A stretch of DNA of 64,000 nucleotides, from IMG/VR virus record IMGVR_UViG_2728369355_000004; one strand, written 5' to 3'. The translations under genes were made by a program, and so were the position numbers. Shown here piece by piece: positions 4,615-64,000 of this stretch (its first letter is position 1; every line of letters begins with the position of its first letter). Origin of the DNA: a virus. Its lineage: Duplodnaviria > Caudoviricetes. Below the pieces are notes generated by a model. That model worked only from the letters and a program-made list of their open reading frames with translations. It had not been told where the DNA came from and did not search any database.

Positions 4615-5403
4615 ATGAAAAGAAAGCTCAATTTAATTTTATGCTTCACTTTACTTATTACTATTTTTCTCCCATTGTCATCAGTGAGTGCCTATACTGG
4701 AGGGTATGCCAACGGAAAAAATGTAGTTGCAATGGTACCTGATACTTATTTTATAGGAAGACCGCATGTAAGCAAAGCAAATACAACGCTTATAACAGAT
4801 AACAATGAAGAAACAAGCTACTTACTTCCTAAAGATAAGATGATTATGATTGATTTAGGTACAGATAGAACTATTGATTCATATAAGCTTAAAAGTGATT
4901 ATAAAAGTTTAAGAATTAGTTTCTACGACCGAGACACAGGCTATATAGACCAATTAGAAACCAACGTTGGTAATGGAGAACTGACGAAGCTTCCAAATGA
5001 AAAATTGTTAGAACGTGTTAGATTTGTCACTTTGTATACGCTTAGTGGCGAAGACATTAATATTAGCGAATTCGACTTCTTTTATAGTAAAGATCCAGGG
5101 TCAACTCCAGATCCTACACCTACACCCGACCCCACACCTACTCCGGGCCCAGAACAGCCAACCGGTGAACGCGCAATCTTAGTTGTCACTATGGATACTG
5201 GTCTTGAAAAAGAGTTTGACCTGAGTATGAAAGAAGTTAATGATTTTATTGCATGGTATGAGGCTAAACAAGCGGGTTCAGGCACAGCTTCTTATGCAAT
5301 TAATAAACATAAAAATAACATAGGCCCTTTTAGCAGTCGCAATGATTACGTAATATTCAATAAAATCCTTACATTTGAAGTAAGCGAATACTCAACTAAA
5401 TAA
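4615..5403 (+). CDS. Secreted protein with PT-rich linker and conserved C-terminal domain
   Basis: Signal peptide; TPDPTPTPDPTPTP linker; RAILVVTM.TGLEKEFDLSMKEVNDFI.WYE tail. Confidence 0.8.
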   Translation: MKRKLNLILCFTLLITIFLPLSSVSAYTGGYANGKNVVAMVPDTYFIGRPHVSKANTTLITDNNEETSYLLPKDKMIMIDLGTDRTIDSYKLKSDYKSLRISFYDRDTGYIDQLETNVGNGELTKLPNEKLLERVRFVTLYTLSGEDINISEFDFFYSKDPGSTPDPTPTPDPTPTPGPEQPTGERAILVVTMDTGLEKEFDLSMKEVNDFIAWYEAKQAGSGTASYAINKHKNNIGPFSSRNDYVIFNKILTFEVSEYSTK

Positions 5404-8688: not shown

Positions 8689-9030
8689 TTATACAGATTT
8701 AATTTTATTTGGGTTAAATTCTTCCCATGCTTTTTGGACAGCCGCTTCGACCTCTTCCGGCTTGATAGATACGCCGATCTGATCCATCTTGACAGTCAGG
8801 TACTTAACAGCTTCGTGAAATTTTTCTGCACCAGCTCCAGCATAATTACGCTCTACCCATGAATAGGCGTCTTGGGCCAGTTGTCCAATTCTGTTGCGCT
8901 GCTCGATGCTGAAACGTGCTTCATAAATTGGCTTAACTTTGCGATACAAGGAGGCCGCCAGTATAAGCATACCAAGCGTACCAAGTCCAATCAGTGACAG
9001 CGTAATATTTGTGATATATTGTTCGATCAT
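8689..9030 (-). CDS. Phage holin, LL-H-like
   Basis: One TM; GAEKFHEAV.YL and EVEAAVQKAW pattern; next to endolysin. Confidence 0.75.
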   Translation of the reverse strand: MIEQYITNITLSLIGLGTLGMLILAASLYRKVKPIYEARFSIEQRNRIGQLAQDAYSWVERNYAGAGAEKFHEAVKYLTVKMDQIGVSIKPEEVEAAVQKAWEEFNPNKIKSV

Positions 9031-9032
9031 AG

Positions 9033-9863
9033 TTATTTATCCCCCTTGAGAATGTTTTGGCGTAGACGACTTAGAGCAGCAGCCGCTTCTTCTCGTGTGA
9101 TTGGAGCGCCGGGACGCGTTCCATCAAAGTAACCATTCTTGGTCATTTCCTCCCATACATCTGCTGCCCACGGGCTAACCTTGTTAATGTCTCTCTGCTT
9201 TTCTGTCACTGTATTTTCCCCCTTCTTGTTGAACCGCGTCCGCAATTCGTCCGCCGTACCGTCAAACTCATTCAGATCCACATTTCCAGCGATGCCCTTA
9301 ATCTTACCGCTATCGCTGTACTGCCAAATATCCCAACGTTTCCACGTCGCTGTGTCGCTCGGGACGCGAGTATCACTGTACCGGGCTATCCAAAGCTTGT
9401 ACCCACCCAATGAGGCGTTAAAGTTAGCAGCAAAGGCATTACCTGTATAGATAATAGGCTTTCGTCCAGTGAGGCGTTCCAGCTCTAAGAGAAAGGCCAA
9501 CGCTACCGCGCTAATGAGCGTTTTGGATAGATTGCCGGGATTGTTTTCATAATCCATCACTGCTGGAAGGTCCAGCGCTTTTGCGCCGCCAATCTGCTCC
9601 AGCACTTCAGCGAAATGCCTTGCTTCCGCTTTTGCAGCTTCAACGCTGGTTGCATCGACAAAATGGTATGCTCCCAGTAACACCCCGGCAGCCCTGGCCC
9701 CTTTTGCATTCGTAATAAATGTCGGATCGACATAACGTTGCCCCTGGCTGGCCTTAATGAAGGCAAATGAAATTCCGTCCGCTTTGACCACCTTCCAATC
9801 AATATTGCCCTGATAGCGAGAGACGTCTATCCCCTGCGCGTTACCTTTTTTCCTTGTCTGCAT
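9033..9863 (-). CDS. Endolysin, GH25 muramidase
   Basis: GIDVSRYQG, FAFIKASQG, GAYHF, DYE, WQYSD..GNVDLN; SLH-like tail. Confidence 0.93.
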   Translation of the reverse strand: MQTRKKGNAQGIDVSRYQGNIDWKVVKADGISFAFIKASQGQRYVDPTFITNAKGARAAGVLLGAYHFVDATSVEAAKAEARHFAEVLEQIGGAKALDLPAVMDYENNPGNLSKTLISAVALAFLLELERLTGRKPIIYTGNAFAANFNASLGGYKLWIARYSDTRVPSDTATWKRWDIWQYSDSGKIKGIAGNVDLNEFDGTADELRTRFNKKGENTVTEKQRDINKVSPWAADVWEEMTKNGYFDGTRPGAPITREEAAAALSRLRQNILKGDK

Positions 9864-10296
9864 TTTCCCCGTCACCTTCCTTTTCTCCGCTTTTACTCTT
9901 TAAAACTTCCACAGCCTGCCGAATGATCGACGGGACTGGCGCACCAAGCCTGCCGCCATTTTCAACTATCGAAAGCAGCTCATTTGCCATATAAAAATAG
10001 GCAACCGCATCCCGGAATAGGTGCGAATCGCCTAAGACTCCATCAATTAGATGGGATACAGCAACCATTGCAAAAATAAAAACCTTTCGGGCAATACCGA
10101 TCAGGCCGATCTTACTTTTCAAGCCGGGTCCGGTTCCCTTCTTACCCTCGGCTCCCGCCGCGAACAGCCCTGTCACATAATCAATAATGACCAGTGCAAG
10201 CAACACCCCCAATACTCCCGACCACCCACCGTAAAAATACGTCACAGCGCTGCTCCCTAAAGCAGTGCTGAACTTAAAAACCTCCCACTTATCCAC
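9841..10296 (-). CDS. Phage holin (toxin secretion/phage lysis family)
   Basis: DYVTG, GIARKV, NELLSIVEN.GRLG.PVP motifs; GTG start after GGGGGA. Confidence 0.9.
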   Translation of the reverse strand: MDKWEVFKFSTALGSSAVTYFYGGWSGVLGVLLALVIIDYVTGLFAAGAEGKKGTGPGLKSKIGLIGIARKVFIFAMVAVSHLIDGVLGDSHLFRDAVAYFYMANELLSIVENGGRLGAPVPSIIRQAVEVLKSKSGEKEGDGENADKEKR

Positions 10297-10318
10297 CTTG
10301 CTTCCCCCGTCTCTTTGT

Positions 10319-10336
10319 TCAGGAAACTTTTCCTGA
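10319..10336. repeat. Dispersed palindrome copy 1
   Basis: TCAGGAAACTTTTCCTGA. Confidence 0.85.
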
Positions 10337-10540
10337 GCTATCATCGTCTGTTTTCTGATCCTTTTCCTCTTGGGCCTGTATCTCTGCTAATGCATTTCCT
10401 ACTGCTATATCTAATCCCTCAAGTATTTCTTTACGTTTATGTGGTTGTGAAGCAATTACAGCAGAAATGACCTCAGTCAAATCCTCAACAGGTCTGGTTA
10501 GATCCAGTTGTATATCCAATGTAGATTTTATTTTTGCCAC
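10319..10540 (-). CDS. Hypothetical phage protein
   Basis: RBS GGGAGGTGA; directly precedes the holin. Confidence 0.65.
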   Translation of the reverse strand: MAKIKSTLDIQLDLTRPVEDLTEVISAVIASQPHKRKEILEGLDIAVGNALAEIQAQEEKDQKTDDDSSGKVS

Positions 10541-10580: not shown

Positions 10581-11294
10581 TTAGTTTGCAGATGCCTTTG
10601 ATTGCTCCTTATTATAAATTTTCAAAAGCCATTCACGACCTAACTGTGTAAATCTACGGTGATATATCACTTTTCCGTTATCAAGAACTTCTTGTTTGAT
10701 TTCAACATAGCCGCAATCCGCAAATCTGCTATACAACAACCATGTGTCATTCTGCCTGAATTGAATCTTTCGATTGCCTAAATCATGGTTAAGAGCAATT
10801 GCTGACTTAAATCCGAGTTCTTTGGCAATCTCTGTGGCAGTATAGGTTTTGTTAACATGCATTAGGATTGCATTTGTTCTTTCCGCCTGTACTCTGGCAG
10901 CACGTTCTTCCTTGAGCTTAGTCAACAGTTCAATTCCAAAGTCAGGATTATTGAGGATATTGTCAATCACATTATCCGTAGCATATATTCCATGCTTCCT
11001 GATCGACGGCAATATTTCATCAGCTACCTTGGCCTGAAATGCTTCGGCTACTTCGTTTCTTGCCTTCATTGCCAGTCGATAAAAGATGTTTTCAGGAATA
11101 AAAGTATCTTTCGACACTTCTGTCGAAAACTTCAAATCCGATATATACTGCCTCACTCTATCCCATTTGACATACTCTGCACTTTTGGATTTGTCTGTAA
11201 ATCCTAATCCGCGAGCCACATCCTCCAAATTCAATTGCGGCGTGCCGTTTCCATCAATAAATCCTCTTACTCCGTGAATTGTAAGTATATCCAT
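10581..11294 (-). CDS. Phage antirepressor (Bro-like N-terminus plus KilAC/ANT C-terminus)
   Basis: LEDVARGLGF, FIPENIFYRL, EILPSIRKHGIY, YTATEIAKELG..FTQLGR. Confidence 0.85.
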   Translation of the reverse strand: MDILTIHGVRGFIDGNGTPQLNLEDVARGLGFTDKSKSAEYVKWDRVRQYISDLKFSTEVSKDTFIPENIFYRLAMKARNEVAEAFQAKVADEILPSIRKHGIYATDNVIDNILNNPDFGIELLTKLKEERAARVQAERTNAILMHVNKTYTATEIAKELGFKSAIALNHDLGNRKIQFRQNDTWLLYSRFADCGYVEIKQEVLDNGKVIYHRRFTQLGREWLLKIYNKEQSKASAN

Positions 11295-11422
11295 TACGAT
11301 CTCACCTTTCTTTGTACGCAAAATAAGCCCCTGAGTTATCAGAGGCTTTCATACTTGTATCTTAAATTGATTTTGTTACTATAACGCTGCGGATTTTAAA
11401 GAGAAATATTGTTCAGTGAATA

Positions 11423-13025
11423 TAAAGTTGTAGACTGATATTGACGTCATTAAGTTAACGGGCAGAAATGTTCAATCATTTACGTTTTACATGTACCCGG
11501 ATAAATGAACAAGTTGTCAGACAGCAAGAACACAGGCGAAATGTACCCGAGTAGAACGCGGATACATACCTATTAATTTGGAAGTGTTAAAGTTTTTTCT
11601 AACATGCATAAATTATCCAACCATGTCGCATAACAATCTCATACATTATTTTATTACAAAGAAGGGGGTTAATCTTCAATGCATACAAGAAAAGAGATAA
11701 GATCGCTATCACCGGAGGAACTCCTTGCGTTTCGAAGGGCTATGATTGAATTGCAGCGGCGTGATGGAACGAATAGTTACATCGATCTTGCAGGATACCA
11801 TTGGATACCACGAGAATTTTGTCCGCATGGGGAATCTATTTTCCTTCCGTGGCATAGGGTCTATATCCGCTTATTTGAACAAGCACTACAATCAATCGAC
11901 CCTTCTGTTTCTTTGCCTTTTTGGGATTGGACCTCAAGCGAATCGTTAGCTCAAGGCTTGGCTCCTGCACATGGCGATGAAATGTTCGATGACGGCGGAG
12001 TACCCCGACTGAATCCTCTCTTCTCCGGTCCAATAGAGGATCGGAGTCGTCAGACTCGCCGAAATCCTCCGCAAGCTCTCAGACGTTTAAGGGAACACGC
12101 CAGCGCAGCAATTGATGCAATGAGTGATTCAAATGATTTTATGAGTTTTACTGTTGCAATCGAGGGGCCACATGGGGACATACACGGTTGGGTTGGTGGG
12201 CCCGGTGGAGATATGTCAACAATTCTACGTTCTGCATACGACCCAATATTCTGGTCTCACCATGCTAACGTTGATCGACAGTGGGCTATTTGGCAAAAGT
12301 GTAACCCACAGGGAAATCCTCCACCTGAGATAATGTCATTATCATTGGAATCCCGCGGTTTTCCGGGGTGGTCTGTGGCTGATACGCTTGATCTCTCGTC
12401 ACCACGACTTGATTATACGTATGAAGGACTAGATACAGTTACTTGTCCTATACGGACTTTACATGAATTATTTGGTAAACCTCGAATTAAAGTGGAAATT
12501 AAAAATATAGTTATTACCAGGGGTTCCTTTATTGTTGATATCTACCTCCGTAGGAAGAACTCTGCTCTGGAGGAGGGCGTTTTCAGTGGATCGTTTAGCA
12601 TTTTCGGGCTCCCAAGCAACGAAGGGGGACATTTTCCCGGCCATCATCATCACCATACGCCCGTAAACAGGCTTATTGATGTTACGGAAGCTTTTTACGG
12701 CATGGAACTTGGCGAGGATCAATTGCATTATGTTGATATACAACTTCAGGCAGTTAATATGGATGGTGAATCCGTAGATCCTGCTGCTCTCCCGATTGAA
12801 GGGGTAGAACTAACAATCCCCGATAGGTCATGATAAGGGTTTAAATCGTTGGTATTTGAATACTAGCGTGCCTTGAAAAGAGAACTTTGTATTAGTAAGT
12901 GTTATTGCTAAGATTTCTAGTGGGTAATCGACGATATAGTTCAATAGAACCTCGGCAGTCTAGGATTTTATTTTCTCGGCCTTGGCTGCCGTTGTTTCTA
13001 TTATTGAGTGCAGTCTAATACTATT
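11423..13025 (+). mobile_element. MITE-like cassette carrier A (tyrosinase passenger)
   Basis: Left end TAAAGTTGTAGACTGA; site ATTAAGTTAACGGGCAGA at 11449; right ~90-bp segment homologous to 46790-46877 and ending in CAGTCTA. Confidence 0.6.
11679..12833 (+). CDS. Tyrosinase (type-3 copper protein)
   Basis: CuA H..CPH..FLPWHR, PFWDW; CuB HGDIH..DPIFWSHHANVDR; His-rich C-terminal domain. Confidence 0.92.
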   Translation: MHTRKEIRSLSPEELLAFRRAMIELQRRDGTNSYIDLAGYHWIPREFCPHGESIFLPWHRVYIRLFEQALQSIDPSVSLPFWDWTSSESLAQGLAPAHGDEMFDDGGVPRLNPLFSGPIEDRSRQTRRNPPQALRRLREHASAAIDAMSDSNDFMSFTVAIEGPHGDIHGWVGGPGGDMSTILRSAYDPIFWSHHANVDRQWAIWQKCNPQGNPPPEIMSLSLESRGFPGWSVADTLDLSSPRLDYTYEGLDTVTCPIRTLHELFGKPRIKVEIKNIVITRGSFIVDIYLRRKNSALEEGVFSGSFSIFGLPSNEGGHFPGHHHHHTPVNRLIDVTEAFYGMELGEDQLHYVDIQLQAVNMDGESVDPAALPIEGVELTIPDRS

Positions 13026-13066
13026 TCACCTTGAAATTCACGATTTGCTAGAGTGCAACTTGACCG

Positions 13067-13419
13067 ATACGGATTTTCCGTATTGCTAATAATCCACCAT
13101 ACGCAAATTGAGGATGGTTCAATATCTAACCGTCTTGATGTTCAAGATTAACTCGGCTGAAAATTCAGCCCAGTTCAACTCAATTTTGAGGCGATTAAAA
13201 GGACTCCTAAAATTTCAGGAGTCCTGATTTACTGACCCCAAAAATGGGGTGAGTGTGTTTACCTTAATTCGATAAGACCGTCTAGTGTAGTAATAAATTC
13301 CTTGAAGGATACATCATTTAGTTCAGCAAGTTTAACTCAAGATATTGATCAGGTGAAGAATTTAATATAAAGTCCATTATCTCTTCTTCTATTATGTTTG
13401 CCTCCAGAAAAATGGGGCA
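13067..13419. repeat. Array of non-identical short palindromes
   Basis: Eight inverted repeats at 13067, 13096, 13133, 13150, 13179, 13200, 13231 and 13399. Confidence 0.8.
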
Positions 13420-13458
13420 TACACCTCTAACAGAATCTAGGCAACAAGATAAATAATT

Positions 13459-13486
13459 TTGACTATAAATTATACTATTGTATAAT
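13459..13486 (+). promoter_or_regulatory. SigA-type promoter
   Basis: TTGACT-N16-TATAAT. Confidence 0.65.
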
Positions 13487-13492
13487 TGTCTA

Positions 13493-13597
13493 TGATTAGG
13501 TTAGAGGGTATAACCCTTGAATAAGGTCACCTTACTCCGGCCAAGAAGACAGGTGACAACTTTGTTGGGAGTCGCTTTGTTAAGCGGCTCTTTTTAA
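13493..13597 (+). ncRNA. Candidate ~100-nt sRNA
   Basis: Promoter upstream; hairpin GTCACCT..AGGTGAC; terminator GAGTCGC..GCGGCTC-TTTTT; no ORF. Confidence 0.55.
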
Positions 13598-14238
13598 TTT
13601 GCATGTTTATTTCTCGGGTGATCACCTAGATACTTATCATAGATAGTTCTAGAGACTGCAATGTCTAACTTGAACTTGTCCGACATTGTCATCAGGTTAA
13701 CAGCATCTTCTAAAACAGCTTGTCTTTCTACAAGCATCTCGGGTGTCATTTGGTCTTTCTTGATCATCTTGGGGTGACCATGCATAGAAGAAATTGCTTT
13801 GTTTGCAATGGTATTAGCTTTAATAAAGTCAACTCTTACTGGTTGTCTTAATCCACTGCAAAGTTTACCCATGGCTTCTTTTTGATGATCTTTATCTAAC
13901 ATACGAAAGATTTGGAAACCTTCAAGTCCAGTAGACTGGCGAAGCTGCTTGATTATGTCGAAAACCCAATCTTGGAAAGCCTCAGCTTCTTTACGGCGTG
14001 ATCTCATAATCATTCGGTAGACTGCTTTTTCAGAGATAATCGCAACTTCTTGCTTTCCCCCGAGGGTGTCGGTTAAAGCTACATCCTTTTGAGTATCAGG
14101 CAAGCGACCTACCGCATCACGATTGTTTCTTATGCCGAGTACCCTAGTGACATCCACGGCTACTGCCCACCAATCACCTAGTGTCTTCTCTACAAAACGA
14201 ATTTCGTGTCCCATCCAATTCTCAATACGAATATTCAT
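13594..14238 (-). CDS. BRO-N family antirepressor
   Basis: EIRFVE..WWAVAVDV..LG, ISEKAVYRMIMRSR..AEAFQDWV. Confidence 0.88.
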   Translation of the reverse strand: MNIRIENWMGHEIRFVEKTLGDWWAVAVDVTRVLGIRNNRDAVGRLPDTQKDVALTDTLGGKQEVAIISEKAVYRMIMRSRRKEAEAFQDWVFDIIKQLRQSTGLEGFQIFRMLDKDHQKEAMGKLCSGLRQPVRVDFIKANTIANKAISSMHGHPKMIKKDQMTPEMLVERQAVLEDAVNLMTMSDKFKLDIAVSRTIYDKYLGDHPRNKHAN

Positions 14239-14436: not shown

Positions 14437-14643
14437 TTAAACTGCTTCGGAAAATAGATCATCTAAAGAGTTCACTTTAAAGATAACTTTCAGCTTCTTT
14501 GCCATGCCAACATTAATGTTCTCTGGATTTCTCTCTAGACGCCCATAGTACGCTTGAGATATCCCTAATTCCTTGGCAACATCTTCTTGAGACATGATGT
14601 TGGTTAATCTGTAGTATGCTAACTTGTTAATTGGCTTTCTCAT
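14437..14643 (-). CDS. XRE/Cro-like HTH regulator
   Basis: SQEDVAKELGISQAYYGRLE. Confidence 0.85.
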   Translation of the reverse strand: MRKPINKLAYYRLTNIMSQEDVAKELGISQAYYGRLERNPENINVGMAKKLKVIFKVNSLDDLFSEAV

Positions 14644-14726
14644 TTTCCCACCCCTTTAGTACTTAATGGTCTAAATAAATTCCATTGCAGTCTTAATATA
14701 TGCTTGTTATAGTCTAATGTCAATAC

Positions 14727-15308
14727 TTGGAGGTATTCATTTTGGAAGTTTTTTCTGCGCGCCTCAAATGGCTAAGAGAATCAAAGGGTTTTAGCCAGCA
14801 AGAAATGGCTGATATGCTAGATCTCTCGCAGTCCTATTACGGAAGATTCGAAAGAAATAAAGGCGAACCCAATCTAGAAACACTCGCAAAGATTTCTTCT
14901 ATTCTTAAAGAAAGTGTAGATTTCTTACTAGGACTTGAAGAATTGACAATAGAAGCTAAAGAGTTACTTGAGAGATCTTTAGAACTAGCAGAATCAATTA
15001 AATCCACTAATGACAGCGTGATAAGAATGTTTGAAAATAACATGTCGGCAGCCATTGAAAGTCTTGATCCAAGATTACAGAAAGCTCTTCTTAAGAATTA
15101 CCAGAAGGACTTATCTCTTTACAAAGCAAAATATAAAAAGGCAGCAACTGAATTTGCATTAATGGTAGTTAAAATTCCTTTCTCTAAGTTTTATGGAGAA
15201 GGATTAATTGATGATGAAGGTAATATTCTTTATAATCCAGAAATAGATAAAGATAATATTCTTCATGAATCAGAAAAAATAGTAGATGAGTATCTAGAAT
15301 TAGATTAA
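14727..15308 (+). CDS. XRE HTH repressor-like protein
   Basis: RLKWLRE..SQQEMADMLDLSQSYYGRFE..SVDFLLG. Confidence 0.85.
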   Translation: MEVFILEVFSARLKWLRESKGFSQQEMADMLDLSQSYYGRFERNKGEPNLETLAKISSILKESVDFLLGLEELTIEAKELLERSLELAESIKSTNDSVIRMFENNMSAAIESLDPRLQKALLKNYQKDLSLYKAKYKKAATEFALMVVKIPFSKFYGEGLIDDEGNILYNPEIDKDNILHESEKIVDEYLELD

Positions 15309-15341: not shown

Positions 15342-15401
15342 ATAGAATAAGAACAAAAAGGACTCCTAAAACTTAGGGAGTCCTTTTTGTTCTTATTCTA
15401 T
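15342..15401. terminator. Bidirectional terminator with 25-bp perfect arms
   Basis: ATAGAATAAGAACAAAAAGGACTCC-N10-GGAGTCCTTTTTGTTCTTATTCTAT between convergent genes. Confidence 0.8.
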
Positions 15402-15524
15402 TTGAGCGATTTCTAAACAACTACTTTTCTAGTTCAGCTTTTTGCTTTTCATTTCATTCCACGAACTCATGTGGAGTGCGACTTTTAATTTGAGCAATAC
15501 TGTCTTATTCCTTTTTTTCATGAG

Positions 15525-16121
15525 TTATTTAAGTGAAGCTATAGCTTTATCTATTTCTTCTAGTTCAGTCTTATATTTAGCTATATTTGTTTCAGCTTCT
15601 TGTAATACTTCTTCCGTGCCTTTTGTCTTGGAGTCCAGAGTGTCCATCGCCTTTTTATTTCCTGCGTATTCTTCTCTAAATTTGCTGTATTTTTCAAGAG
15701 TTTTTTGCAAGTTTTCTTTATCTTTTTCTGTATCTATTACAAATTTCTCAAGCTCCAACTTTCTATCTTCCAGTTTAGAAACAGGCCATCCTTGGTATTT
15801 ATTCGAAACAGACTGTATCACATCAGCAGTTTGTTTTGAAGAAAAATTATCTGGTGATTCAATTTGAATCGTTTTTCCATCCACTTTTAAATTCGCCCCC
15901 AAAGAGTCGGTGACAGCGCGAAGCGGAACATGCGCCTTTCCGTCAACAACAATTGCGTTTTCTGATAATGAGTTGCCATTGACCTTGACTGTATATTCCC
16001 CTGCTACTGTCCGCCCAATCATGGACTTAATTTGATCCGCAAAAGCGCTACCAGCTGTGGCAATAACCGTACCGATTAGCATCCCGCTAAGTAAAACCAA
16101 CAAATAAGACCATTTTTTCAT
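15525..16121 (-). CDS. Secreted protein with copper-amine-oxidase-like N-terminal domain and coiled coil
   Basis: Signal peptide; DGKAHVPLRAV..LGA motif. Confidence 0.75.
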   Translation of the reverse strand: MKKWSYLLVLLSGMLIGTVIATAGSAFADQIKSMIGRTVAGEYTVKVNGNSLSENAIVVDGKAHVPLRAVTDSLGANLKVDGKTIQIESPDNFSSKQTADVIQSVSNKYQGWPVSKLEDRKLELEKFVIDTEKDKENLQKTLEKYSKFREEYAGNKKAMDTLDSKTKGTEEVLQEAETNIAKYKTELEEIDKAIASLK

Positions 16122-38621: not shown

Positions 38622-39212
38622 TTATCCTGCTTTCCTGGTTACAGAATTCTTTTGTTTAACCTGCATAATCATTTCAATAAGCTGCTCTCGGTTAATCAAG
38701 CGAACGTTATTGGATCTTGCTAGTCTGTATGCTTGCTCAGTGTAATCGCTATTTGTCACGACCCATGCTGAAGATGCACGGTAATGTGCTACCGCACCGT
38801 AAACCTCCTGAACCGCTTTAAGCCCAACATTTTTACTGTACCGTTTCGCCTGAACTACGATACGCTGACCGTTTTTTGTAAGAACCAGATCGGCACCGTA
38901 ATCTCCAGAAGCTTGTGTAACCTCAGCTTTGTATCCTTGAGCTCTGAACAGATGTCCTAAATATTTTTCGAATTGATGACCATCCATTTTATCAATTTCA
39001 GCAATTCCAGAATTACGTAGCCTTGTTGCAGCAGCCATTTGACGATAAAAGATAAATGCTATGACCATTGCTACTGCTACAAAAGATGCAAAAACAGAGG
39101 CACCGATTGAACCCGTAACTGAGTAGATAAAGAAAAACGGGGCTATTAGCGCAATCCCTGCAATAGCCTCTTCAATAGAATTTTTCTGCTTTCTTCTCCG
39201 TCTTCTAGCCAT
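38622..39212 (-). CDS. Mrr-catalytic-domain restriction endonuclease with N-terminal TM
   Basis: MDG.QFE..L, SGDYGADL, VVQAKRY, VTNS.YT. Confidence 0.88.
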   Translation of the reverse strand: MARRRRRKQKNSIEEAIAGIALIAPFFFIYSVTGSIGASVFASFVAVAMVIAFIFYRQMAAATRLRNSGIAEIDKMDGHQFEKYLGHLFRAQGYKAEVTQASGDYGADLVLTKNGQRIVVQAKRYSKNVGLKAVQEVYGAVAHYRASSAWVVTNSDYTEQAYRLARSNNVRLINREQLIEMIMQVKQKNSVTRKAG

Positions 39213-41363: not shown

Positions 41364-42824
41364 TTATCTTTTTACTGCCACACTACCTATTGAAGGAAGC
41401 ATAATATGTGTATCTGGTTCCATTAAATATTCTCCGAATGTCAAAACAAAAGCGTCAGCTCTGTCTGGAGACTTAAGCCCACGCCTTTTCATATCTTTCT
41501 TACTTTCAAGCAGTATTTTCCCTTTACTGGTCATGTTCCATTTACGTGCTGTAAGTTGGGTTATAAGAACATCATCATCAGGCAATTGCAGAACGCTCAC
41601 ATCTCCATTTATAAAATTGCTCATATTCTGTTCTAATTGTTCCTTTATGGATGCCCACATTTCAGTAACCAGGTTCCCATAGTGCTCATCTAAAGAAGAA
41701 GAGCCATTGTTAATTGGAATGATCTCATATGGTAGCCCTTCTTCAGCTACGATTTCATTTAGTCGATCCGTTACTCCTCCACCTACACCGCTATCATCTA
41801 CTCTTATTCTGATTCGATTTAAATATGGATGAGCTTTATGTAGCTCTTTAGCCAGGCTGATTACCCAACCAGCAGTAACCATTGTGTCTTTCTTGAAATG
41901 ATGGTGTTCTCCTACAACTCTTGGCCCTATACCAGCAAACATTGAGGTTTCATCATCACCAAATCGTGCAACGTCAACGCCTATGGTTAGCGTATCTCCG
42001 CTGGGGTCCAGCTTCACTTCTTTAGCTGCAAATTCAGCCACTTCCAACGAAATAAATGTATCCGATTCTCCACGGGGGAATTCACCTTCAACCCGGACTC
42101 TCCATACATCACTGCCTTCACCATACTTACGCTTGAGCATAGCGATATTATCCTTGCTTGTTCTTGGACTGTCCAAGCATGAAACCTTGCGTGTCTTATA
42201 ATCCGCTCTGTCCTTATTGTGCGAATCATAAAAAACACCCGACGTTTTTGTCGGGTTGCCGCACATCAATATTTTATTGAACTCACCCGACAGAGTACCT
42301 AAAATGGCTTCCATGATTGGATCAGCAACACCCGATGCCTCATCCACAATAAATAGCATGTAGTCCTCGTGAAAGCCTTGCATATTCTCAGGCTTGGTAG
42401 CTGTACGAGCTGTAGCGAACCAGCGTTCCTCGTAGTTCTTCATGTAGATTTTGGTTTTAGTCCATTTAAGGATTCTTTTCAGCACTGGGCTTTTGGACTG
42501 CCATTTATTTATCTCAGCCCATAACACGTCATGTAGCTGCTGTCTTGTAGGAGCTGTACAAATCACTTTTGGATAAGGGAAGCAGGACAGAAACCAAAGG
42601 GCTGTTGCAGCTTCCAGCCCAGTTTTTCCTACGCCTTGACCTGAACGTACTGAAACGCGCGGATTATTAGCTAAATCCATTAGAGTGCTTGCCTGCCAAT
42701 CATCAGGATAGAACTTAAGCATCTCTTGGCAGAACAATGTGGGATTCTTGCGATACTCAGGAATCCGTTTCTTGAATGCTTGAAGCCTCCGTTTCGTCTC
42801 CGGTGAATCCTTCTGTTTCATCAC
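41364..42824 (-). CDS. terL: Terminase large subunit
   Basis: SGQGVGKT Walker A, IVDEASG Walker B, GNP, GVDVARFGDD, SPDRADA. Confidence 0.95.
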   Translation of the reverse strand: MMKQKDSPETKRRLQAFKKRIPEYRKNPTLFCQEMLKFYPDDWQASTLMDLANNPRVSVRSGQGVGKTGLEAATALWFLSCFPYPKVICTAPTRQQLHDVLWAEINKWQSKSPVLKRILKWTKTKIYMKNYEERWFATARTATKPENMQGFHEDYMLFIVDEASGVADPIMEAILGTLSGEFNKILMCGNPTKTSGVFYDSHNKDRADYKTRKVSCLDSPRTSKDNIAMLKRKYGEGSDVWRVRVEGEFPRGESDTFISLEVAEFAAKEVKLDPSGDTLTIGVDVARFGDDETSMFAGIGPRVVGEHHHFKKDTMVTAGWVISLAKELHKAHPYLNRIRIRVDDSGVGGGVTDRLNEIVAEEGLPYEIIPINNGSSSLDEHYGNLVTEMWASIKEQLEQNMSNFINGDVSVLQLPDDDVLITQLTARKWNMTSKGKILLESKKDMKRRGLKSPDRADAFVLTFGEYLMEPDTHIMLPSIGSVAVKR

Positions 42825-44046
42825 CTACCACCGCCTCTACCCAATCGTCAATTAGATCATCCTCTGTATTGCCTTCTCCCGTAACCTTGGCCCTTTCGAG
42901 TTCAAGTTTCTCACGCTGAATCTTAAGTTTTTCGTCCTCAAGCATCCGTTTATGTTTGTCTGGGAGCAGATCCATGTATTTAGTCAGTACGTCCAAAGCC
43001 TTAGTTTTATCGTGTAGTTTAACACTTACACCATCCTTGCCCTGCTTCACCTCTGAAACCAGAGTCCCATCAATTTCATCACTATTTTTGAAAGCTACAA
43101 AATTATATCTGTACTTCTTAGTGTCTCCAGTGTCTGGATCAAAGACTGGCTCACCTTCCAGTCCTAGAATATCTTCTTCCTTTTGACCAAACTCTACGTA
43201 ATCAGTAATGTCTGCAAAAGCGATCTTCATATATTCCATCAGCACACGTTGTGCATTCAACCCCACCTCGTGGATCATGGATTCCTTATGCTGTCGAATA
43301 ATGTTTTGAATTTCAACTTTCTTCAACAGAGCGAAACCAATTTGATAGGCGGTTTTCTTACTGTATCCCGCCGCAATCGCTGACCTGGTAGCATTGAAGT
43401 CTCGAAGGTATTCATAAGTGAATATCCTTTGCTTAGGCGTTAATCCGTCCTCATCGGGAATTTCCGGTTCAGGTTCTTCAACAGTCGCTGGAACGCTCTG
43501 TACTTTTTTGGAACGTTCCATATTACCGGAGCGTTCCGGTATTTTTTTCGGAACGTTCCGTATTTCTGGAGCAGCGTCTTTTAGCTCTTTAGAGAGCGCA
43601 TCAACTGTTAGCAGGGTAGCATATACCTCTCTTGGCTTATCACCTTGATATGTACCAACGAATTTACGCCGCTCCATTTCATCAATCAGTCGGGCCGCGC
43701 TGCTATAACCTATCCTCATTCTTCTCTGCAATAAAGAAACCGAGGCTTGTTTGGCCTCGGCTATAATTTGGACAGCTTTTAGAAAAAGCTCATCCGAATA
43801 TGATGTTGGTTCTTCATCTTTATTTGGAGGTTCCTTTTTTTGATTAGTTTCATTTTCATTAGAACGTTCCGTATGTTTTCCTTCCCCAACAATCAAACTC
43901 TCCCACTTATCTTTAGCCTTCCATCCTCTTACCGTACCTTCAGATACACTAAGTTGAGAGGCTATTTCTGTGAGACGTATTTTGCCGGAACTGGCTTTGT
44001 ATAAATCAAATGCTTCGTCCCGTTTCGGATCTCTCTTTCGTCCCAT
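42757..44046 (-). CDS. terS: Terminase small subunit with inserted FtsK-gamma domain
   Basis: N-terminal HTH (TVRGWKAKDKW); ASVSLLQRRMRIGYSSAARLIDEME; LTPKQRIF..NATRSAIAAGYS; KLHDKTKAL. Confidence 0.88.
   Translation of the reverse strand: MGRKRDPKRDEAFDLYKASSGKIRLTEIASQLSVSEGTVRGWKAKDKWESLIVGEGKHTERSNENETNQKKEPPNKDEEPTSYSDELFLKAVQIIAEAKQASVSLLQRRMRIGYSSAARLIDEMERRKFVGTYQGDKPREVYATLLTVDALSKELKDAAPEIRNVPKKIPERSGNMERSKKVQSVPATVEEPEPEIPDEDGLTPKQRIFTYEYLRDFNATRSAIAAGYSKKTAYQIGFALLKKVEIQNIIRQHKESMIHEVGLNAQRVLMEYMKIAFADITDYVEFGQKEEDILGLEGEPVFDPDTGDTKKYRYNFVAFKNSDEIDGTLVSEVKQGKDGVSVKLHDKTKALDVLTKYMDLLPDKHKRMLEDEKLKIQREKLELERAKVTGEGNTEDDLIDDWVEAVVGDETEGFTGDETEASSIQETDS
43490..43870. repeat. GGAACGTTCC-type palindromic repeats in terS (candidate pac region)
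   Basis: Copies at 43490, 43510, 43528, 43550 and 43861. Confidence 0.65.
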
Positions 44047-46789: not shown

Positions 46790-48140
46790 TAAAGTGGTAG
46801 ACTGAGCCTAGAAATTGAAAACAGCGACAACCAAGGACGAAAAAAAGTCCTAGACTGTCGCTGTTCCATTGAACTAACGTTTCCCGTTAGCGTAATCAGC
46901 GATAAATAAATAAGCTCAAATTTTTTTAATATACGCGGCGGATATATTTTTGTTCAAATCTTGTTTCTCTACTTATTGTGTAGAAACAGCCCTTTATGCT
47001 TATTGAAAAAATCAAAGTACACTTTTGGGTTTTCTAATTCCCACCATTGCTTTATGTCGACTGGATTAGCTTCTAAATCATATATTTTTGTAAACTCCAT
47101 CGCCAGTAAAAACGGTGAGTGCGTTGCAATGATAAATTGACATCCGCAATAGTGAGCCATTTCCTCTATCATTTTGACAAGTTCAAGCTGCATTTTAGGA
47201 GATAGACTGTTCTCCGGTTCATCCAAACAATATAATGTGTCATTTTTAAATTTGGAATTAAAATAACTCAGGGCTGTCTCCCCATTGCTGTTCAGTTTAA
47301 TTTCGGTGCCGGCGACTCTGCGAATAAACTCCCTGCGTGAAATTGATTTTTTTCTTGAGAGCACCTGTAACCTCAATGCTTCATAATCATCCATGCTATT
47401 CATTTTCACTGTATTGCCGAATTTCAGATTTCCCCATTCCGATCTTATATCTTCTGTGCTATCCACGATTTCATCGTTGTTTGTGCGGACTGTAAGCATA
47501 TAATCAAAAATATCGTCACTTGTGATTATCCTGCTTCCATTTGGAATTCGATGTTTAAATCCCTCGTCGTCAAGTCCAAGTTCAAATTTACAATGTTCAA
47601 CATATGAACTGAACAATTCACTTGAATTGAATGGTGCAATACGATTTAGTTCCAATTTATTCGCTATGAGATTTAGAAGTGTGCTTTTCCCCGAGCCGTT
47701 TCCTCCATATAAAATTGTGATTTTTGAAAAGCTCAATTCGGAAAACCGATTTTTTGAGAAAATGCCACATGGGTAAGTTTCGTCGACATATCCAAACCTA
47801 CCGCCATTGTATGCCATTCTTTGTTCTATCAATGAGGATTCTTCATCTATAGGCAATATGAATTTATCTAAATACATTTTCATTCCTCCGTAATTCATCT
47901 AACCTGCTCTTATGTTTTCTCTTCCGTTTCAATTTGAAGTTTTCAACTAGTAAACCTCCCTCAATAATGTGGGAGCTTCCTCTTTTAAAAGCATTGATTG
48001 CTCAATCCCCTTCCATTCATAGTCGATGTAGGTATTATAGCAGACGAAATCTACTTATCTTATCTTGGTTGTGCTAATCTGCCCGTTAGCTTAATGAAGC
48101 ACCCTCAAGACTATTACTTTATTTTCAGTCTAGAACTTTA
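46790..48140 (-). mobile_element. MITE-like cassette carrier B (ATPase passenger)
   Basis: 16-bp terminal inverted repeats TAAAGTGGTAGACTGA / TCAGTCTAGAACTTTA; internal sites at 46869-46896 and 48069-48095. Confidence 0.65.
46969..47877 (-). CDS. AAA/ABC-type ATPase
   Basis: GGNGSGKST, SNGE, LDEPENSLSP, IIATHSP. Confidence 0.88.
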   Translation of the reverse strand: MYLDKFILPIDEESSLIEQRMAYNGGRFGYVDETYPCGIFSKNRFSELSFSKITILYGGNGSGKSTLLNLIANKLELNRIAPFNSSELFSSYVEHCKFELGLDDEGFKHRIPNGSRIITSDDIFDYMLTVRTNNDEIVDSTEDIRSEWGNLKFGNTVKMNSMDDYEALRLQVLSRKKSISRREFIRRVAGTEIKLNSNGETALSYFNSKFKNDTLYCLDEPENSLSPKMQLELVKMIEEMAHYCGCQFIIATHSPFLLAMEFTKIYDLEANPVDIKQWWELENPKVYFDFFNKHKGLFLHNK

Positions 48141-61875: not shown

Positions 61876-62088
61876 TTAACTGTTGCTTTCTGTTAATTTT
61901 TTGGGAACCAGCTTGATCTCCAGCCCCAAAGCATCGCAAGCTTTTCTAAGCGTGGTTTCGTTCCACCGACGACTTCCATTTAGCAAATTGTGCATGTACT
62001 GCGGGGAACATCCAACTAAATGAGCTAAATCAGAAGGATTTAATCCTTTTTCATTTATAAGTGGCCTCATTTGTTCAGAAACCTTCAT
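61876..62088 (-). CDS. Cro-like HTH protein
   Basis: HTH, divergent from the repressor. Confidence 0.8.
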   Translation of the reverse strand: MKVSEQMRPLINEKGLNPSDLAHLVGCSPQYMHNLLNGSRRWNETTLRKACDALGLEIKLVPKKLTESNS

Positions 62089-62111
62089 TTCATCACCTCC
62101 GTTGAATCAAT

Positions 62112-62275
62112 ATTAATCTATTTGATTAATTAAATCAAACGAAAAATTAATCAAATAGATTCAAATTGAAGCATTTTAGATTATTAATCATATAGATTAA
62201 TATAAATGCTCTTTTTTTCGCCTATTTGCTTCTTTTTAATCTATTTGCTGTTTGTATTTTAATCTATTTGTTGAT
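62112..62275. promoter_or_regulatory. cI/cro operator array
   Basis: TTAATCTATTTG or its reverse complement near 62112, 62146, 62183, 62236 and 62259. Confidence 0.75.
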
Positions 62276-62318: not shown

Positions 62319-62702
62319 ATGTCTAGTTATCCTAACCGGATAAGAGAGATTAGAAAATCAAAAAAGAAATCAGGAGTACAAGTAGCGGAATTTTTAGGAA
62401 TTACCCCTCAATTTCTATACAACATTGAAAAAGGAAGCCGAACCTTAAATACTGAGGTGGCTTCAAAATTAGCCGAGTATTTTGATGTAACTGTAGATTA
62501 CCTCCTTGGCCGTACAGAAGCCGATGATCTCCAGTACCCAGAGTGGGCCACATCAAAGGACATTCGAGATTTTAAAACAATACTTGAAGAAGATGTGCCG
62601 GTAATGTTCGACGGCGTACTAATCTCAGAAGATGACAAAGAAAAAATTAAACGGGTCATGGAAGCTATGTTCTGGGATGCTAAAAAGAACAAAAAAGATT
62701 AG
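62319..62702 (+). CDS. CI/ImmR-like prophage repressor
   Basis: XRE HTH, YFDVTVDYLLGR; no S24 peptidase domain. Confidence 0.88.
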   Translation: MSSYPNRIREIRKSKKKSGVQVAEFLGITPQFLYNIEKGSRTLNTEVASKLAEYFDVTVDYLLGRTEADDLQYPEWATSKDIRDFKTILEEDVPVMFDGVLISEDDKEKIKRVMEAMFWDAKKNKKD

Positions 62703-62812: not shown

Positions 62813-64000
62813 ATGGCAAACTTTAAAAGATTAAAGAGTGGATGGCGGTATCGGTTAAAGTACACCGATCCGTTTACACAGCAGCAAAAGGAGAAATCAG
62901 AACGGGGGTTCCGTACAAAACCGGAAGCAGAGTTAGCTGCAGCAGAATTTTTAAAGAAAATAAAACAAGGCTACGAACAGATTGATATGCCTCTCGTTGA
63001 TTATATAGAAAGTTGGATCATTAACTATAAAAAAGGAGATGTTAGAAAAAACACACTTAAACAACATATGAATAATCTAAAAACACACATCAAGCCTTAT
63101 TTTAAACAATTAATGATAAAAGATTTAAAACCAGATATGTACCAAAAATTTTTAGATGCTTGTTTAGAAAAAAACTTAAGCCGAAGAACAGTCGAAATAA
63201 TTAACTCAACAGTTTACAGTGCTTTAGAACTCGCAGTAATTCAAGGAAAGTTAGAACGTAATCCATGCATAGGATCAATTATTAAGGGAGAGAGGAAACA
63301 AAAAACTATTGATTTCATTGATTCTGAGGATATTCCTCGTTTTCTTTATACAGCAAGAGGATATGGTTATATCTACTGGATATTTTTCAAGTTACTGTTG
63401 GAGACTGGCATGCGTAAGGGTGAAGCCGCTGCTTTAAAGTGGTCTGATATTAATTTTAAGGAGAAAAAAATTCACATTAATGAAACTTTGGATTTTCAAC
63501 CTGATAACGAGGACGAGCTATTCGGGGAAACAAAAACCTTTAGATCAAAACGAACAATCAGTGTAAGTACATCTCTAATCAACGATTTGAAATATCATGC
63601 TAGTTGGCAGAATCAGAATAAAATTAATCTTGGAGAAACAATGTACCGACATGATTTAAATCTCGTTCTATGCCGGAATGACGGGCGTCCTATGCCGAAG
63701 TCAACACTATTTAACGCATTTAAGCGTATCTTGAAACGTGCTAGTCTCGATGAGGTTTTACGTATCCATTCTCTTCGTCACACCTACGCAGTGCTCATGC
63801 TTGAAGCTGGAGCCGATATAAAGTTTGTCCAGGAACAGCTTGGTCATGGTAGTGTGCAGATTACATCTGATGTATACGCACACATTTCTAAAAAGTTAGA
63901 GAAACGTAACATAGATAGATATGAGGAATATACAAGCAAAATTCTCGGCTCAAACAATTTGAAGTTGGGGGACGTTTGGGGGACACCCCAGAAGAATTGA
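62813..64000 (+). CDS. int: Tyrosine integrase
   Basis: Arm-binding N-terminus; TGMRKGE, HSLRHTYA, QLGH..IT..VYAH. Confidence 0.96.
   Translation: MANFKRLKSGWRYRLKYTDPFTQQQKEKSERGFRTKPEAELAAAEFLKKIKQGYEQIDMPLVDYIESWIINYKKGDVRKNTLKQHMNNLKTHIKPYFKQLMIKDLKPDMYQKFLDACLEKNLSRRTVEIINSTVYSALELAVIQGKLERNPCIGSIIKGERKQKTIDFIDSEDIPRFLYTARGYGYIYWIFFKLLLETGMRKGEAAALKWSDINFKEKKIHINETLDFQPDNEDELFGETKTFRSKRTISVSTSLINDLKYHASWQNQNKINLGETMYRHDLNLVLCRNDGRPMPKSTLFNAFKRILKRASLDEVLRIHSLRHTYAVLMLEAGADIKFVQEQLGHGSVQITSDVYAHISKKLEKRNIDRYEEYTSKILGSNNLKLGDVWGTPQKN

Follow-up and report, generated by a model that had tools for sequence, protein, structure and literature searches.

The window analysed here, a 64-kb (64,000-nt) stretch of DNA, is part of a 5.76-Mb single-contig genome (G000) and holds a prophage. 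The genes and gene blocks needed to place the locus are the following:

62813-64000, integrase gene.
62319-62702, main cI-like gene of the prophage.
42757-44046, small terminase gene, alongside early and replication genes.
Extending down to 16186, head and tail genes.
15525-16121, - strand, secreted-looking gene (198 aa) in the accessory region.
14727-15308, + strand, and 14437-14643, - strand, second cI/cro-like pair in the accessory region.
13594-14238, - strand, Bro-N gene in the accessory region.
11679-12833, + strand, tyrosinase gene (PF00264, E = 3.5e-37), cargo in the accessory region.
10581-11321, - strand, Bro-N/ANT antirepressor gene in the accessory region.
8689-10344, lysis genes.

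The accessory region spans 5.5 kb and separates the tail genes from the lysis genes. Within it, a 760-bp gap bounded by the tyrosinase gene on one side and the Bro-N gene on the other carries an array of palindromes. The first-pass annotation had set this array between two antirepressor genes, and it does lie between the Bro-N/ANT gene and the Bro-N gene, with the tyrosinase gene interposed between the ANT gene and the array. That annotation also saw no Rha gene here; by profile hits, Rha (PF09669) is absent from the whole G000 genome. Among the 92 other species genomes of the genus that were searched, one, G017, has the orthologous gap; it likewise has no Rha gene, and ORF6N (PF10543) gave no hit in G000 or G017. 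Where G000 has the tyrosinase gene, G017 carries genes for proteins of 517 aa and 1371 aa, the latter with an LPD38 domain. Elsewhere in the prophage, genes for an Mrr-type restriction endonuclease and an AbiEii-like AAA ATPase (38622-39212, 46969-47898) are possible defence cargo, and ATTAATC/GATTAAT-type palindromes clustered at 62030-62205 beside the main cI-like gene are probably its operators.

Inverted-repeat lists returned all eight palindromes that the first-pass annotation had located:

h1, 13067..13083, unstranded: palindrome ATACGGA-ttt-TCCGTAT; loop change only in G017.
h2, 13096..13122, + strand: imperfect palindrome, copy of the ORF6N-ANT in-gene palindrome, sense on the + strand, coding HTQIEDGS.
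h3, 13133..13147, unstranded: palindrome TCTTGA-tgt-TCAAGA; loop change only in G017.
h4, 13150..13175, unstranded: AACTCGGCTGAA-aa-TTCAGCCCAGTT with one C.C mismatch, tentatively Rha-like.
h5, 13173..13194, + strand: CTCAA-tt-TTGAG with flanks, copy of the Rha 'x-L-N-F-E-A' in-gene palindrome.
h6, 13200..13225, unstranded: AGGACTCCT-aaaatttc-AGGAGTCCT, 9-bp arms, Rha-type, terminator-like on the - strand.
h7, 13231..13255, + strand: ACTGACCCCA-aaaa-TGGGGTGAGT, one mismatch; copy of the second palindrome inside Rha genes.
h8, 13399..13419, - strand: 5'-leader hairpin of a small, decayed ORF, pairing with its GGAGG.

The locus had been described as an array of eight. Seven units do form one, as different, near-perfect palindromes packed into about 13067-13255 with no ORF longer than 39 aa, as that description held, but the eighth is a separate element. 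In G017, the h8 hairpin precedes an intact 47-codon ORF (L013 6806-6949) and pairs with its GGAGG; the G000 copy of this ORF has ATA as start codon and is missing 7 nt. h8 is unrelated to the array; it masks the ribosome-binding site of this ORF, decayed in G000. By our reading, a T>C change at 13390 in sequencing run X2 restores the ATG of that ORF. The small ORF with its hairpin-masked ribosome-binding site (about 13260-13392, - strand) stands back-to-back with a candidate sRNA of ~100 nt at 13459-13597 (+ strand), which has a near-consensus promoter (TTGACT-16-TATAAT) and a strong terminator and overlaps the Bro-N gene at its 3' end. The sRNA-like piece and similar small ORFs lie downstream of the Bro-N genes of G082 and G084.

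On the tyrosinase side of the gap, a 90-nt element at 12937-13026 consists of a long hairpin with a T-rich tail, ends in CAGTCTAATACT and is likely the terminator of the tyrosinase gene. It has 7 other genome copies with 75-88% identity, and similarity to G017 stops there. Isolate X2 carries ~1.07 kb extra between this element and the array, and the DNA contigs of sequencing runs contained no unit indels within the array.

Units of the array are spaced 24-45 nt apart with no repeat between them, and each is single-copy in G000 at up to 2-3 mismatches. The 231 nt from 13040 to 13270 fold to -80.3 kcal/mol on the + strand, compared to a shuffle mean of -47.9 (z -7.55), and to -76.5 kcal/mol on the - strand (z -6.40), with 0/200 shuffles as good on either strand. 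We also scored hairpin density genome-wide, counting perfect hairpins with a stem of at least 6 and a loop of 2-8. A density of 5 within 200 bp is reached at only 32 of 11,168 hairpin positions, in ~20 genome loci, about half of which are rRNA-operon spacers by our reading of the list. A known structured RNA or tRNA was rejected as an explanation: no Rfam model reached its gathering score anywhere in the window (0 matches), those in 12700-13700 were all sub-threshold, and no tRNA was found.

A site between convergent genes could be occupied by intrinsic terminators or insulators, or else by CRISPR-repeat mimics (RNA anti-CRISPR hairpins), a pair of explanations that we take together and consider extremely unlikely. 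For terminators, the units speak one by one. A simple terminator scan called h7 alone, on the + strand. On the - strand h6 is followed by TTTTAAT, a partial, T-rich tail, yet the scan made no call; h6 also comes within 3 mismatches of the hairpin at 15359-15385 downstream of the cI-like gene. The other five of the seven units have no T tract, and we rejected intrinsic terminators as an account of the array as a whole. The evidence on CRISPR-repeat mimics is given below.

Similarity to in-gene palindromes of phage regulators, which the first-pass annotation had noticed for Rha-type proteins, proved to be well founded and extends to ORF6N-ANT and Bro-N genes. In Jersey-type Salmonella phages, the palindrome of the Rha/Ant gene codes for QSAEKSAD directly before a conserved YKDSKGR; h4 matches this palindrome at 28/34, at the same domain position, with a chance-level E of 9. 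As the h4 match lay inside a Rha/Ant gene, we collected all PF09669 domains of the genus, which number 15 in 14 of the 93 genomes. In 11 of these 15 domains the conserved N-F codons, at one fixed domain position, are spanned by a perfect palindrome whose arms measure 6-9 bp. Two more genes have one-mismatch versions (by eye), and in two Rha genes a second palindrome lies a few codons upstream. Arms of at least 6 bp were present at nt 75-135 in 11/15 domains, at nt 0-70 in 0/15 and after nt 140 in 2/15. When codons were resampled synonymously, the observed arm length was reached in at most 13 of 300 trials for 9/15 genes, and was not unusual for the other 6. The arms vary by allele via paired codons (L/E, R/A, S/G, H/V, P/G), so the constraint acts on the nucleic acid.

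Comparable elements occur in the two other families. Four of six ORF6N domains form 7-11 pairs at nt 166-193, over H-Q-N/I-D codons, and 4 of 9 Bro-N orthologues have a palindrome at residues 52-60. The A/T centre is set by conserved residues, N-F in Rha and Q-N/I-D in ORF6N. Codon choice keeps these in-gene palindromes, and their arms are allele-specific yet complementary. No second copy of the Rha in-gene palindrome was found within 1.5 kb at 11 loci, and near-identical Rha helix-turn-helix sequences go with quite different palindrome arms. Searches by sequence for a solved structure matching a Rha domain returned none, and a full-text literature search, with most subscription journals outside its coverage, found no paper on Rha in-gene palindromes. 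The ANT gene at 10581-11321 contains a palindrome of its own, TTTCGACA-cttc-TGTCGAAA, with 8-bp arms, at 11109-11128; it falls in the part coding for residues 65-71 of the Bro-N domain and may be a similar in-gene element.

The first-pass annotation had proposed looking for the units inside regulator coding sequences, and such matches exist. h2 agrees with the ORF6N+ANT gene of G024 over nt 182-208 at 26/27 positions and scores 46.1 bits by BLAST, where the best of 50 shuffles of the set containing this ORF6N match reached 28.2 bits. The homologous frame of h2 is HTQIEDGS of the ORF6N domain, and the TIRKLRMV frame suggested earlier was wrong. h5 is identical over 16/16 positions to nt 112-127 in the G079 Rha domain, with a BLAST score of 32.2 bits, compared to 30.2 bits for the best of 50 shuffles of the Rha set. 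Two further units scored 26.3 bits each, under that best shuffle: h7, at 22/25 to nt 73-97 of the same G079 domain, and h6, which matches the G089 Rha domain over nt 93-113 (coding SLLNFQES) at 19/21. Units of G017 match three Rha alleles (17/17, 22/23, 16/16) and the Bro-N gene of G084 (25/27, 18/19), and by direct comparison its unit GTCGTCAAAATGACGAC is the palindrome of the ORF6N gene L096. The h2, h5 and best G017 matches score above all 50 shuffles. Every strong match between array and gene falls on the position of the gene's palindrome and runs a few bases past it, and the units are oriented either way with respect to the genes they derive from. In G017, one piece still shows 10 of 14 residues of a Rha domain around the palindrome, which indicates that the units are captured gene fragments. 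For h1 and h3, the searches made yielded no source gene family; h1 has a look-alike (22/23) in G054, inside an ORF without a Pfam family.

BLAST of the array against a phage database gave no match at E <= 0.01; at E <= 10 it returned 104 records, nearly all from the one Jersey-type Salmonella phage lineage at E = 9. Paenibacillus-phage matches (20/20 in an integrase gene, E = 3) were set aside as chance, and exact-pattern scans of viral contigs for h6 and h7 gave 0 matches. Family-wide, 153 of 401 genomes had some match to the array at E <= 0.5, most by chance; at 28 such loci, the 26 ORFs scanned comprised 1 antirepressor gene and mostly housekeeping genes otherwise.

At least four of the seven units are copies of the palindrome from antirepressor-type genes of other phages. 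The array mixes different alleles although the prophage and the host genome have no Rha or ORF6N gene. We are thus highly confident that it is a non-coding, modular pile of copies of antirepressor-type in-gene palindromes, from Rha and ORF6N-ANT genes and, in G017, also from Bro-N genes.

Given that a Bro-N gene is the immediate neighbour of the array and the cI/cro-like pair is 1.2 kb away, the units could instead be binding sites for the prophage's own Bro-N, Bro-N/ANT or local cI/cro-like proteins. We consider this very unlikely. No unit matches the window's own Bro-N and ANT genes above chance, and the Bro-N genes of the window and of G017 have no palindrome at residues 52-60, the family position. 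The seven units are also mutually different, unlike the operators of one protein, and by our reading the cI-cro spacer at 14644-14726 shows AGTCTAA-type repeats instead.

Comparison with G017 answered positively the question, raised in the first-pass annotation, of whether units are gained or lost at the orthologous locus: whole units have been added, lost and swapped. Outside the palindromes the two genomes are ~95% identical. G017 has two extra units between h1 and h2 and another after h7, and at the position of h4 it has a different palindrome, of ORF6N type. h7 is identical in both genomes, and h2 is decaying in G017. A second palindrome cluster lies further on in the G017 gap, bringing the total to ~17 palindromes in 660 nt, and a 55-nt two-hairpin module is present twice. 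In some paralogous G017 units the outer frame, ACTCA...TCAGT, is constant and the two inner arms vary in concert; these inner-arm variants share the frame of h7. Among the 93 genomes, G000 and G017 are the only ones in which a true hairpin with this frame was found, and there it is confined to this locus. Between the two genomes, 2 of 88 arm positions are substituted, compared to 10 of 114 in loops and spacers (p = 0.07, one genome pair).

The array is like REP/BIME-type repeats and MITEs in being composed of small intergenic palindromes, clustered and in both orientations. We rejected a dispersed REP/BIME/MITE or mobile hairpin family as its origin, given that the units are single-copy and that the hairpin frame is found only here, in 2 of 93 genomes.

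Non-coding palindrome clusters are also found in three other genomes, from other genera of the family. The cluster in G214 lies between a Rha gene and a P22_AR_N-ORF6C gene and has 18 bases in common with h5, including its left flank; that in G155 contains an h4 look-alike (20/21).

We considered the palindromes as mimics of CRISPR repeats because the host has a type I-C repeat and G017 has repeat-like units. The G000 host contains three CRISPR arrays with a 32-nt repeat. We assign this repeat to type I-C because it flanks cas5d genes in relatives, Cas5d being present in 37 of the 92 other genomes of the genus. In G000 itself the arrays are present, cas5d and csd1 are absent, and cas1 is broken. 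A solitary type I-C repeat at 15451-15482 (- strand), 2.2 kb from the palindromes, matches the host-genus repeat at 28/32 and is the only non-array site in G000 above the genome background maximum of 21/32. It lies 42 nt past the stop of the gene at 15525-16121 and ahead of the bidirectional terminator at 15359-15385. By its sequence and position, it is a candidate RNA anti-CRISPR. RNA anti-CRISPRs (Racr) are solitary repeat units in prophages that mimic the CRISPR repeat (Camara-Wilpert et al. 2023, PMC10651486), and the layout of gene then repeat is like that of the validated RacrIC1 (PMC10651486).

The palindromes of the array did not behave in this way. Their 3' flanks resemble the I-C handle at background level only, with mean scores of 5.1 and 5.35 compared to 5.51 in 5,688 background hairpins; the sole exception is one G017 hairpin (10/12). 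The spacing of 24-45 nt is off the ~66-nt CRISPR period, and we rejected a CRISPR array on that account, as well as CRISPR-repeat mimics on account of the flanks. A possible repeat remnant at 13030-13062 (- strand) was also rejected, as it matches at about 20/32 by count, not above the 21/32 background. Racr elements (PMC10651486) and the array are alike as short nucleic-acid mimics of a rival's recognition element in non-coding prophage slots, but the seven palindromes are modelled on antirepressor genes, and not on a CRISPR repeat or 3' handle.

Two further observations concern G017. In L013 at 4757-4900, in the slot of the solitary CRISPR repeat of G000, it has four palindromes followed by the same terminator hairpin as in G000; two of these are Rha-type and belong to a piece of a Rha gene that is 42 nt or longer. 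Inside the palindrome gap of G017, at about 7291-7455 of L013 (+ strand), is a phage-borne mini CRISPR array of three degenerate I-C repeats with a ~66-nt period, two of which match at 28/32 and 25/32 (by count), and whose 33-nt 'spacer' holds the palindrome CTTCAAATTGAAG. Neither cas5d nor a further array with this I-C repeat is present in G017. The mini array may act as a regulatory RNA resembling a crRNA, or as a decoy RNA (see bioRxiv 10.1101/2024.10.29.618823).

Alternatively, the array may be an RNA element from the operon of the cro-like and Bro-N genes, serving as antisense to rival antirepressor mRNAs, as a sponge that titrates a hairpin-binding factor, or as hairpins that protect or process small RNAs nearby. 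Its very stable fold on both strands would suit this role, as would the variable arms with a constant A/U loop, a classic RNA hairpin signature. The Rha- and ORF6N-derived units of the window are antisense to Bro-N transcription, and the G017 palindromes lie in the transcribed 3' region where G000 has its CRISPR-repeat mimic, and flank the mini CRISPR array. Orientation is mixed, however, with ~6 units antisense and 4 sense to local transcription by our tally, and the loops of many palindromes are no longer than 2-3 nt. Terminator-like by eye, h6 would stop - strand transcripts before h5-h1, and no Rfam family matches. We therefore regard an RNA element as unlikely. As the units stand in both orientations, DNA sites fit better than one RNA.

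A more serious competitor, although still rather unlikely in our view, is that the array is a by-product that serves no function itself. Functional in-gene palindromes would provoke template switching, breakage and duplication, and the pieces would pile up in a dispensable gap. This would account for units that are captured gene fragments, for the module present twice in G017, for the decay of h2 there and the non-significant conservation of arms (p = 0.07), for the placement of the array in an accessory region with different cargo in the two prophages, and for the absence of the cognate Rha and ORF6N genes. It accounts less well for the perfect arms of 6/7 units, which are under no coding constraint, and for the recurrence of an h5-type unit with its flank in a different genus. 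The G017 paralogues, with their kept ACTCA...TCAGT frame and co-changing inner arms, would require selection or conversion, and by our reading the G000/G017 indel junctions have no target-site duplication or copying signature. Pure deletion debris is unlikely, since random deletion within genes of ~700 nt would not be expected to spare, over and over, only the 20-40 nt surrounding the palindrome.

We conclude from these comparisons that the array is probably a store of putative protein-binding sites taken over from other phages. The best explanation overall, which we hold tentatively and at somewhat less than even probability, is that stored copies of in-gene palindromes act as 'foreign' operators at the DNA level. 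It is possible, though short of probable, that each palindrome is a double-stranded DNA site to which proteins of its source gene family bind as a dimer. Through the array, the resident prophage would then bind, sense or exploit the antirepressor-type proteins of co-resident phages.

Our preference for DNA-level binding sites comes from a precedent: the Roi protein of phage HK022 reportedly binds a site inside its own gene, roi, a Rha-family regulator gene. We know of no other experimental precedent for the possible nature of the in-gene palindromes. The Roi site is, like the models for the array, an intragenic site in a Rha-family gene, and its equivalence to the palindrome is putative. It is a single site, in the gene, next to an IHF site, in an enterobacterial phage, whereas the array brings together, outside any gene, copies of several alleles drawn from two or more gene families (three if G017 is counted), and its genome lacks those genes.

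Several points count against stored operators. Near-identical helix-turn-helix sequences go with different arms, which selection for structure fits at least as well, and each gene palindrome is single, unlike usual operators. One chromosomal copy per site makes a poor decoy. Conservation of the arms exceeds that of loops and spacers only weakly, and the decay of h2 in G017 points the same way; h6 may simply be a terminator.

We further hypothesize, as a speculative and rather unlikely generalization, that the Rha, ORF6N and Bro-N domains carry a private binding site in the codons of a variable loop and that prophages collect the sites of their rivals in 'decoy islands'. If so, protein and site would be inseparable by recombination, and specificity would change jointly in both; the decoy islands would stand beside the CRISPR-repeat mimics as a means to bind, sense or hijack the regulators of competitors.

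Few phage regulators are as common and as poorly understood as the antirepressor-like Rha, Bro-N, ORF6N-ANT and KilA-N proteins, and little is known of what their N-terminal DNA-binding domains do. Three families with a covarying palindrome inside the domain, together with prophages that lack the genes and hold mixed collections of the palindromes, provide defined candidate protein-site pairs. If binding does occur, these pairs would point to a layer of phage-phage interaction built on borrowed DNA sites.
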